Source: a virus (lineage: Duplodnaviria > Heunggongvirae > Uroviricota > Caudoviricetes). Taken from it: DNA of 64,000 bases. Below the pieces are notes generated by a model. The model was not told the DNA's origin and did no database searches. It saw only the letters and a list, made by a program, of their open reading frames with translations. The stretch lies in the IMG/VR virus record IMGVR_UViG_2925908680_000001; one strand, 5' to 3'. The position numbers and the translations under genes are program-made. Of the stretch, positions 2,000 to 58,640 are shown one piece after another (position 1 is the stretch's first letter; each line of letters opens with the position of its first letter).

Positions 2000-2446
2000 A
2001 TGGCTGAAAATTTAAAGGCAAGAGATGGTAACCGCCTGTATAAGGCGCAATTGCTTTCCTACTATTATTCACGCCGCGCTGAGTCGGCGATCGGCAAAGG
2101 TGCGCGTTTTGTTATCTCTAAGGCGTATTGGTGCAAATCTAGTCTGGTAACTGCTAATGGTGCAGGAGGCTGGAATATAGCGGACATTCCACTCGATTTT
2201 AAATTGAGTAACGCTCAACAGTTTGCTGTGTCCGATCTGATATTGTCCAGTGTGGATGGGATTATCACTATCAATGCAGCCTTCCCTCAAGAAAGAATGC
2301 CGGATAACACGCCTTACGACTTTAACACGCTTGTGCTTGTTGATGCTGAGGAACAGGCTTTTGCTGTGCTTTGCACCCAGCAAGACACCCTCTATAAAGG
2401 TAAACGTTACAGTATTCTCATGACAATCGAGCAAGTTGAGGGATGA
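2000..2446 (+). CDS. first gene of tail-fibre operon (P1 R-like position)
   Basis: 148-aa ORF; stop overlaps ATG of tail-fibre gene (ATGA); synteny with P1 R-S-U. Confidence 0.4.
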   Translation: MAENLKARDGNRLYKAQLLSYYYSRRAESAIGKGARFVISKAYWCKSSLVTANGAGGWNIADIPLDFKLSNAQQFAVSDLILSSVDGIITINAAFPQERMPDNTPYDFNTLVLVDAEEQAFAVLCTQQDTLYKGKRYSILMTIEQVEG

Positions 2447-5400
2447 TTATGGGTGCTGATAAAACGAACAACATAATGACACTATCCTCTGGTGTCTCAC
2501 AGCCGTTGCTTGCTGATGTTCAATATTTCGAACTCTATAGTAGTTCGGCTCTTAACAGAAAACTTAAAAATATTGTTTTGCCGGGCTTTTACTGTGGATT
2601 TGAACCAGTTCCCGGCACAGGGTTGAGCGTCCGTATAACTTCTGAAAACTCAGAAGGTAAAGGGGCTGCTTCAGTAGATGTAAATAATGTTCAGATATCC
2701 GTTCAGCAAATAGAAGATGTGACTGTCTCGGTAAAGGCTGGGGCTACCAACATTATTGTGCTAGAAGCCAATTTTGAACATGGTGTAAAAACGACACAGG
2801 TAGAGAGCGCATCTTCTGTCAGTGCTGCAAGAATTTACGCGCGTACGGACAATACTATTGGGCAGAATCAAATTGAATTATGTCGAGTTATCGTGCCTAA
2901 CGGCGCAACGGCTGTGACGAAAGAAATGATTGTGCTTAAATACCGGGTTAACCGTGCTGTTGGTGTCGAATTCTCTAATGAAATAAGCAGTACAGAAGAA
3001 AGAAAAGCGGCTACACCTCTGGCTGTCAAAACTCTCCATGATTTGGTTGATACAAAAGCTCCGCTCGATAGTCCACATCTGTCAGGTACGCCGACTTCGC
3101 CGACACCTGAACCCGGTACAAACAACACACAGATCGCAAATGCGGCCTTTGTCTATGCTGCTATAAATGCGCTTATCAATGGTGCTCCGGGAACGATGGA
3201 CACGCTGAAAGAAATAGCGGCTGCGATCAATAACGACCCGAATTTCAGCACAACTATCAACAATGCCCTGGCTCTTAAAGCTCCTTTGGCAAGCCCGGCG
3301 TTCACAGGTACGCCGACAGCACCTACGGCCTCACAAGGCACAAATAGCACGCAGATTGCAAATACAGCCTTTGTTAAGGCAGCTATAACGGCACTTATCA
3401 ACGGTGCACCTGGCACATTGGATACGCTGAAAGAAATAGCGGCTGCGATCAATAATGACCCGAATTTCAGCACAACTATCAACAATGCCCTGGCTCTTAA
3501 AGCTCCTTTGGCAAGCCCGGCGTTCACAGGTACGCCGACAGCACCTACGGCCTCACAAGGCACAAATAGCACGCAGATTGCAAATACAGCCTTTGTTAAG
3601 GCAGCTATAACGGCACTTATCAACGGTGCACCTGGCACATTGGATACGCTGAAAGAAATAGCGGCTGCGATCAATAATGACCCGAATTTCAGCACAACTA
3701 TCAACAATGCCCTGGCTCTTAAAGCTCCTTTGGCAAGCCCGGCGTTCACAGGTACGCCGACAGCACCTACGGCCTCACAAGGCACAAATAGCACGCAGAT
3801 TGCAAATACAGCCTTTGTTAAGGCAGCTATAACGGCACTTATCAACGGTGCACCTGGCACATTGGATACGCTGAAAGAAATAGCGGCTGCGATCAATAAT
3901 GACCCGAATTTCAGCACAACTATCAACAATGCCTTGGCTCTCAAAGCGCCTTTGGCAAGCCCTGCATTAACGGGTGTCCCTACTGCGCCGACCGCCGCAC
4001 AGGGCACAAATAATACGCAGATAGCTACGACCGCTTATGTAAGAGCTGCCATATCCGCATTGGTTGGTTCATCACCAGAAGCTCTTGATACCCTGAATGA
4101 GCTTGCCGCAGCACTTGGCAATGACCCGAACTTTGCGACAACAATGACAAATGCGCTGGCAGGCAAACAGCCTCTGGATGCAACTTTAACCGCGTTTGCT
4201 GCCCTTGCGACTGGTGCAAACAAACTGCCTTATTTCACCGGTAAGGATACGGTAGCGCAGACTGATTTAACGTCAGTCGGTCGCGATATTCTGGCTAAAA
4301 CAAGCACACTGGCCGTTATCCAATACCTTGGTTTAAGAGAACTCGGAACAAGCGGTGAAAAGATCCCCCTGTTGAGCACGGCTAACACATGGAGTGCACG
4401 CCAGACTTTCAACGGCGGGATCACCGGGGCGCTGACAGGGAATGCCGACACCGCGACGAAATTGAAAACAGCCATAAACATTAATGGCGTCAGGTTCGAT
4501 GGTTCTACGAACATTTCGATACCAACAATTACGTCTAGAGGACGCGTTACTGCGCTTACCGGTACAACGCAAGGTGCTGCTACTGGATTGCAGATGTATG
4601 AGGCATACAACAATGGCTACCCTTCCCCCTATGGCAATGTGCTTCACCTTAAAGGTGCCACCGCTGCTGGCGAAGGTGAGTTATTCATTGGCTGGAGTGG
4701 CACGAGCGGTGCCCATGCGCCCGTACATATCCGTTCGCGGCGGGATACTGATTCTGCCAACTGGTCTGAATGGGCGCAGGTCTATACGTCAAAAGATTCA
4801 GTTCCCGGCGTCAATGCCAAAGGGGATCAGGATACCTCCGGCAATGCTGCTACGGCGACCAGATTGCAGACGGCGCGCACTATTAACGGTGTCTCGTTTG
4901 ATGGTTCTAAAAACATTGAGCTAACGGCGGAAGATTTAAATCTTGAGCAAACCGTAGAATTAGCCGCTGGATCATTGCAGAAAAACCAGAACGGCGCAGA
5001 TATTCCAAACAAAGATAAATTTACGCAAACAATAGGTGCTTGCCGCTCTTTTCATGGTGCTATTAGCACAGGTGCAGGAAACTGGACGACGGCACAATTG
5101 ATTGAATGGCTGGATTCTCAAGGGGCATTCAATCACCCATACTGGATGTGCAAATGTTCATGGTCATACGGCAATAATAAAATTATTACCGATACTGGCT
5201 GTGGAACTATTCATCTTGCAGGTTGCGTTATTGAGGTTATGGGTAATAAAGGTGCCATGACCATCCGTGTAACCACCCCGAGCACTTCCAGCGGTGGCGG
5301 AACTACTAATGCACAATTTACTTATATAAACCATGGCGCAGATTACGCACCAGGCTGGCGGCGTGACTACAGTACCAAAAATCAGCAGCCTGCATTTGCT

Positions 5401-5889
5401 TTAGGGCAGACAGGAAGCACAGTTGGAAATGACAAAGCTGTTGGATGGAACTCGATTAGCGGGGTTTATAACGCTAATATTGGTGGAGCATCTACGTTGA
5501 TTCTCCATTTTTATATGGGAGCTGGTAGTTGTCCGGCTGTTCAGTTCCGCGTGAATTATAAGAACGGCGGTATTTATTATCGTTCTGCGCGTGACGGTTA
5601 TGGTTTTGAAGCCGACTGGTCGGAATTTTATACTACAACACGTAAACCATCTGCGGGAGATGTTGGGGCATATACCAAAGCAGAATGTAATTCACGATTT
5701 ATTACAGGTATTCGATTAGGTACAAAATCGTCTGTGCAAACATGGAATGGTCCTGGATGGAACGATAAATCTGGTTATGTTGTTACTGCCTCAATCAACT
5801 CAAATAAGGACGAACTTATTGATACAACTCAGGCAAGGCCGGTGCAGTATTGTATCAATGGTACATGGTATAACGCGGGAAGTATTTAA
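2443..5889 (+). CDS. tail fibre protein (constant part 2443-4328 + variable tip in current orientation of invertible segment)
   Basis: 1148 aa; Gly/Ala/Thr-rich 80-aa repeats typical of phage fibres; C-terminal part shared in inverted orientation with 6983..8844; followed by Tfa chaperone. Confidence 0.85.
3061..4020 (+). repeat. 240-bp tandem repeat array inside tail-fibre gene (3 perfect copies 3301-3540/3541-3780/3781-4020 plus diverged flanking copies)
   Basis: Identical 240-nt units read directly; encode repeated 80-aa block ...[74 protein letters not shown]. Confidence 0.9.
4316..4341. other. cix-like crossover site (left): TTATCCAATACC-TT-GGTTTAAGAGAA
   Basis: Matches gix/cix/hix family half-site pattern (AAACC-NN-GGTTT core) at outer edge of inverted repeat. 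Confidence 0.75.
4329..5008. repeat. left ~680-bp inverted repeat of invertible C-segment
   Basis: Reverse complement of 8165-8844 read base by base; diverges at inner end. Confidence 0.9.
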
Positions 5890-5891
5890 TT

Positions 5892-6425
5892 ATGCAGCAT
5901 TTAAAAAACATCAGATCAGGTAATCCAAAAACTGTTGAACAATATGAATTGACGCGACAATTTGGTGTTGTCTGGTTGTATTCTGAAGACGGTAAAAACT
6001 GGTATGAGGAACAAAAGAACTTCCAGGATGACACTATAAAAATTGCTTACACATCAGATGGAATTATTGTGGCTATAAATAAAGACGTATCTACAATAAA
6101 TCCAGAAGGTTTAAGTGTGGTTGAGGTTGCTGACATTACTGCAAATCGCCGTGCTGACATTTCTGGTAAATGGATGTTCAAAGATGGCGTAGTGATAAAG
6201 CGAACTTATACCGAGGAAGAACAGAGGCAACAAGCTGAAAATGAAAAGCAAAGCCTATTGCAACTTGTCAGGGATAAAACCCAACTATGGGACTCACAGC
6301 TACGGCTGGGCATCATTTCCGATGAGAATAAACAGAAATTAACCGCGTGGATGCTATATGCGCAGAAAGTAGAATCTACAGATACCTCCATCCTGCCAGT
6401 AACGTTTCCCGAACAACCAGAATGA
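5892..6425 (+). CDS. tail fibre assembly chaperone (Tfa/U-like)
   Basis: 177 aa; N-terminal [21 protein letters not shown]... and conserved GKWMFKDG motif of Mu/P1/P2 Tfa family. Confidence 0.85.
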
Positions 6426-6426
6426 G

Positions 6427-6456
6427 AAAAGGCCCGTTATCGGGCCTTATTTTTTA
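6427..6456. terminator. bidirectional rho-independent terminator between convergent Tfa genes
   Basis: aaggcccg-ttat-cgggcctt stem flanked by A-run and T-run. Confidence 0.7.
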
Positions 6457-6981
6457 CTCAGGTTTTTGTGGCCATTCTGGCTTTGCCGTATCCACGCGGC
6501 TTACAAGAACGCTGTAGCGTTCCCATGCTTCCAGTCGGCTACGCTCCTCATCTGTTGCCATGTTCAGCCTGACAGCGCGTTCCAGTGGCTGAATAATGCT
6601 TTCTGCTTCGGAAAGTAACGCGGCCTTTTGTGATTCGGCCTGTTGTTGCTGTTCGTCTGCCGTATAAATCCGTTTAACCACAGCTCCGTCCTTAAACATC
6701 CACTTACCGGAATCATCGGCCCGACGATTGGCCGTTATATCGGGAACCTCAACGACGCTAAAACCTTCAGGGTTAAGCGTGGATGCATCTTTGGTGATGG
6801 CGACAATAATATTATTTTCATCGTAAACAATCTTTATTGTGTCTGGCTGAAAGTTTTTCACTTCCTCATACCAGTTTTTTTCGTCCTCAGAGTAAAGCCA
6901 GATGACTCCGTGCTTCTTTGTTAACTCATACTGCTCCACTGTTTTAGCATTACCAGCTTTTATGTTCTTTAAGTGCATCAT
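6454..6981 (-). CDS. tail fibre assembly chaperone (Tfa/U'-like), paralog of 5892..6425
   Basis: 175 aa, about 60% identical to the + strand Tfa by eye. Confidence 0.85.
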
Positions 6982-6982
6982 A

Positions 6983-8844
6983 TTAAACGCTCGCTACATT
7001 ATACCAGGTGCCATTTATATACTTTTGAACGGGTCTGTAATAAACACCAGCAATATTATCGGCGGAGTTGGAACCTGTATCCTGAACATTTATACCAGAC
7101 AATACATGACCTGAAGGACACTGGAAATTCCATGTTTGCCAGTTGTTTACACCATAATATTGCTGTGAGCCAAGCCGAACATCCTTTACATATCGGGAAT
7201 CAATGTTACCCCAGTTGCTTGGTTGTATCTGACCGTTTACAGCAAATGTCACCGAGTTATCTGTATTTCGCTGACTATAGAAATGCCAGCCTGAATCATC
7301 ACCAAGCTCTGCAACAGTTGGTCTTGACGAATTTCCCCACAAGTTAAATGATGCATTACGGGCAGCTGTATTTGAGCTTGAAAGTGTGAATAACTTACTT
7401 TCCCCAGTCTGAATACCCTTTAATGATATTGCTGAACCATTTCTAAAGCGGAATACATGCACACCATTAGCATAAGCATCCAGCACCCCATCACCATTTT
7501 GTTTAAACCCGGTATCGTTATCTCCTAAAACTATTGAATTGCCACCCAGGGCATTAGCCGTTCCAATCCCCAGATTTCCGCTAAAAATGGCATTAATACC
7601 GAATATTGAGTGAGAACAATAAAACCCTCGCCCATTGTTAAAATCAAGAATAGCTTGTGCGTTCGTGCTTTCTGTCGCGGGATTAGTTGCTCCCCACTTA
7701 TATGTTGTTTGACCGACGGTATAATCCTGAGTTGGAACAATAACCGTTAGCCCTTCTTCAGCAGAAACCCGCACAGGAAAAGCCCTGCCTTCAACGTAAA
7801 AAACGCTGCATACATCATCTTCTTTAAGGCTTGTTACAATGGAATGGATTGCGCGCTCATTAGTCTGATACGTCGAAAAATAACCTGCCGCATATGAACC
7901 ACGATCAGTCCAGCCACCAGGCATTACCATTCCATTGAATTCGCAGTTATTCATTTCGTAATTACCACCGGCAGATGTGGTCGTTATAATCACTCTGGAA
8001 GCCAGCTCGCCAGTGCTGCCTGTGGAACGCCGGAAAATAACTGGATACCACTTTCCACCAACTGCATTAGACGGCGCATTAAATGCGTACTGCCGCATTC
8101 CTTTTTTCTTATCCACTTCGCCTTTGCTGTAAACATTAATGTTACTCAGGAAGCGATCTTTATCAGGAATATCCGCGCCGTTCTGGTTTTTTTGCAATGA
8201 TCCAGCGGCTAATTCTACGGTTTGCTCAAGATTTAAATCTTCCGCCGTTAGCTCAATGTTTTTAGAACCATCAAACGAGACACCGTTAATAGTGCGCGCC
8301 GTCTGCAATCTGGTCGCCGTAGCAGCATTGCCGGAGGTATCCTGATCCCCTTTGGCATTGACGCCGGGAATTGAATCTTTTGACGTATAGACCTGCGCCC
8401 ATTCAGACCAGTTGGCAGAATCAGTATCCCGCCGCGAACGGATATGTACGGGCGCATGGGCACCGCTCGTGCCACTCCAGCCAATGAATAACTCACCTTC
8501 GCCAGCAGCGGTGGCACCTTTAAGGTGAAGCACATTGCCATAGGGGGAAGGGTAGCCATTGTTGTATGCCTCATACATCTGCAATCCAGTAGCAGCACCT
8601 TGCGTTGTACCGGTAAGCGCAGTAACGCGTCCTCTAGACGTAATTGTTGGTATCGAAATGTTCGTAGAACCATCGAACCTGACGCCATTAATGTTTATGG
8701 CTGTTTTCAATTTCGTCGCGGTGTCGGCATTCCCTGTCAGCGCCCCGGTGATCCCGCCGTTGAAAGTCTGGCGTGCACTCCATGTGTTAGCCGTGCTCAA
8801 CAGGGGGATCTTTTCACCGCTTGTTCCGAGTTCTCTTAAACCAA
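6983..8844 (-). CDS. alternative tail-fibre C-terminal segment (Sv'-like), promoterless in this orientation
   Basis: N-terminal 220 aa identical to residues of the + strand fibre encoded by the inverted repeat; unique 390-aa tip; ends with same INGTWYN motif. Confidence 0.8.
8165..8844. repeat. right ~680-bp inverted repeat of invertible segment
   Basis: Reverse complement of 4329-5008. Confidence 0.9.
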
Positions 8845-8856
8845 GGTTTAGGATTG
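8831..8856. other. cix-like crossover site (right): TTCTCTTAAACC-AA-GGTTTAGGATTG
   Basis: Inner half-site identical to left site; overlaps stop of invertase gene. Confidence 0.75.
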
Positions 8857-9408
8857 AAATGATGATGCCGGAAACTTCTTATAAAGAGTGGAAACAGCCA
8901 CATCATAGATGATAGCAACCTGCTTACGGGGGATGCCCTTCTCCAGCAATCGCCGCATTTGCTGCCATGTTTCTTTCTGGTATTTAGGCCGACGCCCACC
9001 TATTCGACCTTCTGCGCGAGCTGCATCAAGTCCAGCGCGTGTACGTTCAACAATAAGTTCACGTTCCATTTCTGCCAGCGCCCCCATTACGTGAAAGAAA
9101 AAGCGCCCCATTGGTGTACTGGTGTCGATGGAGTCAGTGAGACTCCGGAAGTTAATGCCTCTGTCACGCAGCTCTTCCACCTGCACAACCAAGTGACGCA
9201 TGCTGCGCCCAAGGCGATCTAACTTCCATACGACCAGGGTGTCACCTCTGGAAAGAATACGCAGAACCTTTTTTAACCCTGGGCGTTCAGCCTTTTTGCC
9301 GCTCGCCTTATCCTCAAAAATTAGCTCACATCCTGCGCTTTCAAGGGCGTTTCGTTGTAAAGCGGTGTTTTGGTCATTAGTTGATACGCGAATGTATCCA
9401 ATAAGCAT
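8848..9408 (-). CDS. cin: serine DNA invertase (Cin/Gin/Hin/Pin family)
   Basis: 186 aa; MLIGYIRVSTNDQ... catalytic Ser motif, resolvase fold, C-terminal HTH; adjacent to invertible segment. Confidence 0.92.
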   Translation of the reverse strand: MLIGYIRVSTNDQNTALQRNALESAGCELIFEDKASGKKAERPGLKKVLRILSRGDTLVVWKLDRLGRSMRHLVVQVEELRDRGINFRSLTDSIDTSTPMGRFFFHVMGALAEMERELIVERTRAGLDAARAEGRIGGRRPKYQKETWQQMRRLLEKGIPRKQVAIIYDVAVSTLYKKFPASSFQS

Positions 9409-9411
9409 ATG

Positions 9412-9436
9412 TCCCCCCTTGTATGTTAAGGGGGGA
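9412..9436. other. hairpin (tcccccctt-gtatgtt-aagggggga) immediately upstream of cin start, overlapping its SD
   Basis: 9-bp perfect stem; the G-run that would act as cin Shine-Dalgarno is inside the stem. Confidence 0.5.
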
Positions 9437-9458
9437 GATTCTAGAAGATGTCCTGTAA

Positions 9459-9481
9459 GGAAATAACAAACTGACTAAGTT
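9459..9481 (+). promoter_or_regulatory. late-promoter-like element GGAAATAACAAACTG + -10-like TAAGTT
   Basis: Same 15-mer family as 1939/14702/61335; upstream of holin/dar operon. Confidence 0.5.
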
Positions 9482-9513
9482 AGTGGCGCATTAGATGTTA
9501 TTTCTGGAGGGGT

Positions 9514-9840
9514 ATGTTTGCAGATTATGAAAATCTGGCTGTAGTAGTCATAACATCCCTACTAAGTGGAACCGGCGTATTCCTTCTCGGAGTTAGAGAC
9601 GGGCGCATTTCTGCGTCCCTGCTCAATCTTGCGAGTGAATTGTTTACTGCGGTAACAGCCGGGCTTGCGGGGTATGGGGTGGCGGTTAGCCAAGAATGGC
9701 CTGAAGGTATCATTTTCTGCGTTGTTCTGATTGCCAGTAACAACGGTAGTGAAATTTTACAGGGCTTGAAGTCCAGAGCTAGTAACGTCTTGAATCTCTT
9801 AAGCGTAATAGCGAATGGGGGAAAAGGTGGAGAGAAATAA
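9514..9840 (+). CDS. holin-like small membrane protein (LydA-like position)
   Basis: 108 aa, hydrophobic segments, first gene after late-promoter-like site. Confidence 0.45.
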   Translation: MFADYENLAVVVITSLLSGTGVFLLGVRDGRISASLLNLASELFTAVTAGLAGYGVAVSQEWPEGIIFCVVLIASNNGSEILQGLKSRASNVLNLLSVIANGGKGGEK

Positions 9841-18677: not shown

Positions 18678-18879
18678 ATTAATTTGCTGTTTCTAAATCG
18701 GAATGTATGATCTGCATCATCGACAGAAGTCATCCATTGCTGAAATTTTTAGTTGATCTTCCATGTTTTCAGGCTTATATTCATGCCGTCGTAGCAAATT
18801 CTGCGACCAGGTTTGACAGCCTGAATGTTAGTGCGGACAACCGCAGATTTCCGATATTGCGGTATTTTTGTGTCCGTAA

Positions 18880-19020
18880 ACCGCGTTACGCCCGAATTAT
18901 GGTGGGGCGTGATGGGGAGGCTTCGGCCTGCTGGTTTCACTAACGCCAGTCTGTCAACCCTGTCACGTCCTGCCACCTGTTTGACAGCGGGTAGCAGGTT
19001 GTTAAACCTGTTAGTGAGGC
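18880..19020 (+). ncRNA. candidate C4-type antisense RNA / structured leader upstream of icd-like gene
   Basis: GC-rich hairpins in leader, position equivalent to P1 c4; not verified by covariance model. Confidence 0.3.
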
Positions 19021-58341: not shown

Positions 58342-58446
58342 AAATACTGACTGTTGCGCCCTGGCATTATCGTGGGGTATATTTCTACGGCACCTTAGAA
58401 AAACGGGTGCCGGGATTGGAACCCCGGATAATGCAAAAGGCGACAC

Positions 58447-58470
58447 AGACGCCGAAAGCGTCTTTTTTTG
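58447..58470 (+). terminator. rho-independent terminator agacgc-cgaaa-gcgtct + TTTTTTT
   Basis: Classic. Confidence 0.85.
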
Positions 58471-58499
58471 TGTCATGCCATCGCACAGCCATACGTAGC

Positions 58500-58640
58500 G
58501 TTTAGCTCAGAGATCAATGGTAGTGCTGGCTGGGCTGCCGAAAGGCAGGCCGGTTCCCTTTTGCGCCGGTAGTTCCAACCCAGTCAGTGCTACCGCCATT
58601 GAGATTGGAACCTCACGCGGTAGCTCCTTAAATTAGCAAA
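58500..58640 (+). ncRNA. candidate C4-type antisense RNA / structured leader upstream of second icd-like gene
   Basis: Multiple GC hairpins in 140-nt leader; position as P1 c4. Confidence 0.3.

Follow-up and report, generated by a model that had tools for sequence, protein, structure and literature searches.

A P1-type Cin/cix tail-fibre switch, with a hairpin over the cin Shine-Dalgarno sequence, on a D6-like plasmid prophage of E. coli

The C segment of bacteriophage P1 is a host-range switch in which the fibre genes and the invertase gene are laid out as Sc-cix-[Sv U U' Sv']-cix-cin, with the stop codon of cin inside cixL (NC_005856; annotation of Lobocka et al.). Its relatives in the Din family, Gin of phage Mu, Hin of Salmonella and Pin of e14, share with the P1 type the serine-invertase chemistry, the 26-bp sites with a 2-bp core and the Fis-dependent enhancer, and the G segment of Mu likewise switches S/U against S'/U' fibre genes, but in the Mu, Hin and Pin systems the recombinase gene is placed and oriented differently relative to the segment. 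Hin, moreover, controls a promoter and not the 3' end of a gene. In the Min system of p15B, a P1-related plasmid, and in the shufflons, an invertase also swaps the 3' ends of fibre-like genes, by multiple inversion in the case of Min. The subject here is the tail-fibre region of a 64,000-nt stretch of viral DNA (IMG/VR record IMGVR_UViG_2925908680_000001, Caudoviricetes), called the window below and numbered from its first letter, which is 100% identical to the E. coli plasmid CP031767.1. Very probably this region is a functional C-segment switch of host range, of the P1/D6 type, borne by an E. coli plasmid prophage that resembles D6. As a system it is nothing new, being the classical Cin/C-segment switch in a D6-like backbone; what marks this member of the type is a repeat that is a little longer, additional shaft repeats and an alternative tip that is P2-like. 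As a textbook P1-type switch whose sequence is already in GenBank (CP031767.1), it opens no new biology, and the value of the analysis is mostly negative.

The two crossover sites carry much of the comparison, as both 26-mers agree in every letter with the annotated sites of P1 and are also as in D6. The left site (4316-4341, plus strand) is identical to P1 cixR and reads TTATCCAATACC TT GGTTTAAGAGAA, with its core TT at 4328-4329, within codon 629 of the fibre gene S. The right site (8831-8856) is identical to cixL, reads CAATCCTAAACC TT GGTTTAAGAGAA on the minus strand with its core TT at 8844-8843, and overlaps the cin stop codon (8850-8848), as in P1. The sites are inverted relative to each other, have the same central dinucleotide and bracket a segment of 4.5 kb. 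A repeat scan places an inverted repeat over the same ends of the segment, with a left arm at 4318-5016 (plus strand), which encodes the fibre part common to the two versions of the fibre protein, S and S', and a right arm at 8156-8854 (minus strand). The arms are 699 nt long and 99% complementary, with eight mismatches: two of these are the differences between cixL and cixR in the outer half-site, and the others fall at 4801-5010, leaving 4325-4800 perfect. The shared homology in P1 is ~620-630 nt, compared with ~680-699 nt for the arms here. No third convincing cix-like core was found in the 64 kb, where a loose search returned seven matches against 6.2 expected by chance, the two real sites among them. 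Since there are only these two sites in 64 kb, we regard the element as a two-state switch and reject a multi-site system like Min or the shufflons.

The invertase gene, cin (8848-9408, minus strand), encodes a serine DNA invertase of 186 aa (Pfam Resolvase, E = 5e-50, and HTH_7, E = 3e-18) that is full length, shares 97% identity with P1 Cin and 98% with D6 Cin, and contains the catalytic motif YIRVS(9)T. Nucleotides 19-90 of the gene (9319-9390, minus strand) match the annotated recombinational enhancer (sis) of P1 in 68 of 72 positions, with one strict Fis-like 15-mer shared, and are the putative enhancer here.

What the segment holds is two oppositely oriented, promoterless fibre 3' ends, each with its own chaperone and in frame with a constant part that lies outside. 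As now assembled, S (2443-5889, plus strand; 1148 aa; Pfam Phage_fiber_2 and gp37_C) consists of the constant part Sc, the shared repeat and the tip Sv, and it matches the S genes of P1, P7, D6 and RCS47. It is preceded by R (2000-2446, plus strand), an open reading frame in the position of R in P1 and D6, whose identical counterpart in CP031767.1 belongs to Pfam PF26881, Phage_P1_tail_fiber_R. The S protein is longer than those of P1 (987 aa) and D6 (939 aa) because Sc has at least four copies of a 222-nt (74-aa) shaft repeat in tandem (3055-4020, plus strand; family D1 of the repeat scan) rather than the two of P1, where it is annotated as 'repeated element b1/b2' (222 nt); the extra copies would imply a longer fibre shaft. 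The tip expressed in the present orientation, Sv (5017-5889, plus strand; 290 aa), contains the gp37_C domain and is followed by its assembly chaperone U (5892-6425, plus strand; 177 aa; Pfam Caudo_TAP, E = 1e-35). On the minus strand are the alternative tip Sv' (6983-8155; 390 aa), within an open reading frame of 605 aa without a proper start (6983-8800), and the chaperone U' (6454-6981; 175 aa; Caudo_TAP, E = 7e-37). The layout of the fibre genes, cix sites and cin is that of P1, and the order of genes agrees with P1 and D6.

When the segment between the cores (4330-8842) is inverted in silico, Sc joins Sv' in an uninterrupted S' of 1248 aa, with U' then 3' of it. S and S' are identical up to residue 786 and nearly so up to ~858, so that past the crossover at codon 629 some 229 codons are common to both and only the last 290 (S) or 390 (S') residues switch. 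An earlier note on this DNA had claimed cix-like sites at 4316 and 8831 around a 4.5-kb segment, inverted repeats of ~680 bp, two Tfa chaperones with an alternative fibre tip, and ~220 shared codons after which only the last ~290/390 residues would switch. Its description holds throughout, with the sites now identified as identical to P1 cixR and cixL, both small proteins assigned to Caudo_TAP, the repeat slightly corrected to 699 nt at 99% identity, and the shared stretch put at ~229 codons by the simulated inversion.

In the mechanism that we propose, Cin would bind the two inverted 26-bp cix sites, one within S and one over its own stop codon, make staggered cuts at the central TT and invert the 4.5-kb segment, the catalytic steps being taken over from the literature on P1, Mu and Hin. 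The enhancer in the 5' end of cin would aid the inversion; this we expect by homology, and its dependence on Fis again follows what is described for P1, Mu and Hin. Since only Sc would be transcribed, from a late promoter 5' of R, inversion would set either Sv and U or Sv' and U' behind the constant part, and the virions of a lysogen population would then carry one of two receptor-binding tips.

The tips are where this copy of the switch is most its own. Sv, which is joined to Sc here, is 84% identical in nucleotides to the cin-proximal Sv' region of P1, of which it is the homologue. Sv' is 57% identical to the tail-fibre tips of Peduovirus (P2-like gpH), and sequence comparison found no homologue of it in either P1 or D6. 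Parts of the segment also match tips of Mu, D108 and SfMu at 80-83% nucleotide identity. In D6 (NC_050154), the tip joined to Sc is homologous to neither tip of the window, and it is the cin-proximal D6 tip that is 79% identical to the tip expressed here, which means that the two records differ in orientation as well as in content. Such mosaicism is to be expected, since D6-like prophages vary most of all in their inversion region (PMC6799933). The pairing of a tip like P1 Sv' with one like P2 gpH predicts a host range unlike those of P1 and D6.

The segment occurs in both orientations. In the sister plasmid CP031764.1 the rare Cin allele of the window and CP031767.1 recurs, but the segment is in the opposite orientation; relative to the window this plasmid is 99.76% identical in the segment and 99.3-99.5% identical in the flanks. 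Two E. coli plasmids of 97,648 bp each (L178 and L179), whose segment is 94%-similar to that of the window, differ solely in that the 4506 bp between the cix cores are exactly inverted, without any mismatches, and the IMG/VR relatives L170 and L171 likewise hold opposite orientations. Given the inverted state of CP031764.1 and the exact inversion between L178 and L179, the switch flips in nature: inversion at these cix sites, as compared between assemblies, is ongoing. Opposite orientations, which the earlier note had suggested looking for, are thus found in the CP031767.1/CP031764.1 and L178/L179 assemblies, and in place of the combination that would have told against it, a single orientation beside an inactivated cin, the segment is found inverted in CP031764.1, and cin of the window is intact. 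As public sister assemblies show both orientations, orientation is unfit as a strain marker, and neither is it a sign of an assembly error.

Upstream of cin the locus parts company with P1, whose cin leader is unrelated in sequence, and agrees with D6, in which the leader is identical. On the minus strand, 9436-9412 reads UCCCCCCUU-AACAUAC-AAGGGGGGA, followed by CAU-AUG. This folds into a stem of 9 bp (six G-C and three A-U) with a 7-nt loop and 3 nt between the stem end and the AUG, and the G-rich 3' arm, AAGGGGGGA, is the sole Shine-Dalgarno candidate for cin. The hairpin has a folding energy of -16.4 kcal/mol (z = -3.8), a stability that none of 200 shuffles reached. Opening positions -18 to +5 of cin costs 16.8 kcal/mol against a median of 8.0, the third-highest rank among 117 D6 genes; the background was drawn from the curated D6 gene starts, D6 having the same cin leader as the window. 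For perfect hairpins of at least 9 bp in general, the window is about ten times richer than its shuffles (20 entries, ~11 of them distinct, against 1.7). On the strength of the energy rank, the shuffles and this excess we take the hairpin to be real and not a chance palindrome. A reading of the cin hairpin as an intrinsic terminator was rejected, as a T-run is found on neither strand, and an Rfam search with it returned no match worth noting at E <= 10. Our literature search did not find the structure of the cin leader, cin promoters or cixPp covered.

The earlier note had claimed that this 9-bp GC hairpin at 9412-9436 buries the G-rich Shine-Dalgarno sequence of cin and that it could hold invertase translation, and with it the flip rate, low. 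Folding confirms the first part, a stable hairpin over the Shine-Dalgarno sequence; for the second there are no compensatory changes to set beside it, and the candidate -10 element ends 2 nt before the stem. That the hairpin lowers Cin translation in those transcripts that hold the full 5' arm is therefore a tentative proposal, which draws on the stability of the stem, its position over the Shine-Dalgarno sequence and the rank in opening energy, and which has against it the missing compensation, the alleles without a hairpin together with the P7-type leaders, a start from TAGAAT that would truncate the stem, and the lack of an Rfam family. An effect on the flip rate is something that we only infer. 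Nothing shows that selection maintains the hairpin, and throttling is plausible but unproven.

How much of the stem is present in the cin transcript depends on where that transcript starts. The hexamer TAGAAT (9438-9443, minus strand), which occupies the place of the predicted P1cin -10 of P1 (TAAAAT) and itself reads TAAAAT in some alleles, is the only good -10 candidate and ends 2 nt 5' of the stem; a good -35 element is absent there, and a consensus promoter scan did not call it. From this hexamer the start would be predicted at ~9431, inside the 5' arm, which would remove most of that arm. When truncated transcripts were folded, a start at 9436 left the whole hairpin, one at 9433 left 6 bp, one at 9431 left 4 bp, and starts at 9430 or farther downstream left none. 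The promoter scan also gave a promoter-like site inside lydA (9551-9524), and a transcript from there would include the stem.

Variation among leaders bears on the same question. The leaders of D6 type, anchored on flanking sequence and taken from IMG/VR and metagenomes, comprise 12 variants with predicted stabilities from -6.3 to -16.8 kcal/mol and with G-runs of 5, 6 and 7. Their 5' arms show four substitutions, all C>T (C>U) and all keeping pairing as G·U, although C>T is the commonest mutation anyhow. In the 3' arm the changes are A>T, two different G>A, and gain or loss of a G, every one of them pair-breaking and uncompensated, and no compensatory double change occurs among the 12 variants. 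A frequent allele has its 5' arm replaced altogether, by CGTATCCTTAGCATACAAGGGAGA, and so forms no hairpin over the Shine-Dalgarno sequence; the hairpin is also missing from two more distant D6-like leaders (L104 and L174). P7-type cin leaders are without it as well and open at only 4.6 kcal/mol. In P1 the annotated Shine-Dalgarno sequence again lies in the 3' arm of a 9-bp stem, in a leader of unrelated sequence, but that stem is modest (opening energy 9.9 kcal/mol, z = -1.0).

Across the family as a whole (74 distinct leaders from 160 invertase loci), the median opening energy is 10.8 kcal/mol, compared with 8.0 for D6 genes. Pin-type genes have another conserved leader, and in 39 pin-type leaders RNAalifold detected no more than a nearly invariant GGCAU/AUGCU pairing of 5 bp, at -1.8 kcal/mol. 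A family-wide hairpin at the ribosome-binding site of invertase genes was accordingly rejected, as the pin-type pairing is 5 bp long and almost without covariation. The hairpin described here occurs in only a part of the D6 lineage and, in view of the uncompensated 3' arm changes, the hairpin-less alleles and the mixed state of the other lineages, conservation and covariation do not support the stem.

The best-surviving alternative, to which we give slightly less than an even chance, is that the hairpin is an incidental, neutral palindrome: two mutable C6/G6 runs around a G-rich Shine-Dalgarno sequence, with no maintained regulatory role. The stem would then not be fully transcribed, or its effect would not be selected, and low Cin would come from a weak promoter alone. 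The broad, uncompensated range of stabilities, the three G-run lengths, the frequent allele with a replaced 5' arm, the closeness of TAGAAT to the stem, with a start at ~9431 leaving at most 4 bp, and the unstructured P7-type leaders all fit with this. It is less easily squared with a perfect 9-bp stem that lies exactly on the Shine-Dalgarno sequence and is so strong an outlier in both opening energy and shuffles, with the retention of G·U pairing by all four 5' arm substitutions, or with the recurrence of a 9-bp stem over the annotated Shine-Dalgarno sequence in the unrelated leader of P1. The converse, that the hairpin is a true throttle on Cin, with its mutable C6/G6 runs as a natural rheostat, strikes us as unlikely. 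Were it so, alleles of the D6 lineage, at -6 to -17 kcal/mol, would flip their fibres at heritably different rates. The leader hairpin offers a cheap and testable handle on invertase dosage versus switching rate, should one want to tune P1/D6-based transduction vectors.

A second hairpin made of a C-run and a G-run (ATCCCCTCGG...CCCGGGGGAT) lies at the start of an lpa-like late-activator gene (window ~35075-35116, plus strand), where it buries the Shine-Dalgarno sequence GGGGGA. In D6 the lpa-like gene ranks second of the 117 for the opening energy of its initiation region, one place above cin. If throttling of Cin were true, the lpa hairpin would suggest a shared strategy, in which dangerous or switch-like regulators are kept translationally quiet in plasmid prophages. 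A perfect 10-bp palindrome of C- and G-runs, TTCTTCCCCC-AAATGC-GGGGGAAGAA, occurs at 1909-1934, between the gene-16 homologue and R, and has no T-run.

A different doubt concerns the invertase itself, and would have the switch crippled in this lineage. Cin of the window has Q at codon 76 (9181-9183), a position at which 78 of the 80 distinct homologues fetched have L and the other two M, and the exact Q76 protein (WP_119743302.1) is recorded on two contigs only. By a hand alignment, position 76 presumably corresponds to the buried L79 in helix D of gamma-delta resolvase. The substitution L76Q might thus impair the activity of Cin. Cin, Gin, Pin and Hin are known to cross-complement one another, and the inversion between the sister plasmids could be the in-trans work of a host prophage invertase such as Pin, or else an older event. 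It further weighs against a working switch that the sister plasmids are not clones, with a difference of 0.5-0.75% in the flanks, and that the inverted copy in CP031764.1 (L196) has seven indels of 1-2 nt, mostly in short runs. We nevertheless hold it to be quite improbable that L76Q has inactivated or weakened Cin in this way. The two contigs with Q76 differ in orientation, which requires at least one inversion within the Q76 lineage unless the allele has moved by recombination, and cin is undamaged in its reading frame, Ser9 catalytic motif, helix-turn-helix domain and enhancer sequence.

The differences in CP031764.1 deserve a description of their own. They amount to seven deletions of 1-2 nt and four substitutions at the equivalents of window positions 5691-6069 and 8102, clustered in the 3'-terminal part of Sv and the 5'-terminal part of U with one more in a T-run of Sv', and in gene calls they split S' and truncate U. 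They may be long-read assembly errors or real decay.

Least likely of all, and very improbable in our view, is that the palindrome acts as a DNA operator for a repressor of cin or as an mRNA-stabilising 5'-terminal stem-loop: it does lie directly 3' of the candidate -10, the usual place for an operator, a start at 9436 would make the stem exactly 5'-terminal, and perfect palindromes of such size in the window mostly look functional, but C>T changes, which preserve G·U pairs in RNA, would break the palindrome in DNA, no candidate binding protein is known, and the hairpin on the lpa Shine-Dalgarno sequence suggests a theme at the level of RNA.

In the pin-type leaders (loci L003-L162, Enterobacterales), an invariant TGGCA followed by a T-run stands ~33 nt 5' of the start codon in all 39 distinct sequences. 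It can form the 5-bp pairing with AUGCU at the start codon, or may be seen as resembling a sigma-54 -24 box, and one locus (L060) has a perfect sigma-54-like TGGCAC-N5-TTGC. In the set as a whole, the GC of a -12 element is found in only ~70%, and the start predicted from a sigma-54 promoter would fall inside the Shine-Dalgarno sequence; the window is not concerned by this motif.

On its other side the cin leader is bounded by the divergent holin gene lydA (9514-9840, plus strand), which is 100% identical in nucleotides to lydA of D6. There is no lydC here, as distinct from P1, and lydA is directly divergent from cin. A P1 late-promoter-like element (9477-9496, plus strand), consisting of a AAGTTAGTG box similar to the -22 box AAGTTACTT of P1 LPdar/LPs and a -10-like hexamer, is the probable promoter of lydA and faces away from cin in the 105-bp stretch between the two genes.

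The surroundings of the switch point to the kind of element that carries it. The best phage and plasmid matches are P1, P7, RCS47, D6 and many P1-like E. coli plasmids, and the gene order of the window, bplA-16-R-S...cin-lydA-lydB-hdf-darA, follows the D6 backbone. Among the Rfam hits are two immunity loci of the C4 antisense RNA (18775-18980 and 58390-58600), one with an a1/b1 target and the other adjoining an isrK-like RNA, and a cluster of four tRNA genes at 32097-33580; both are consistent with a D6-like plasmid prophage that has two ant/icd regions. By this gene order, the D6-identical lydA and cin leader, the two C4 RNAs and the tRNA cluster, the window is identified from its sequence as a D6-like plasmid prophage of E. 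coli.

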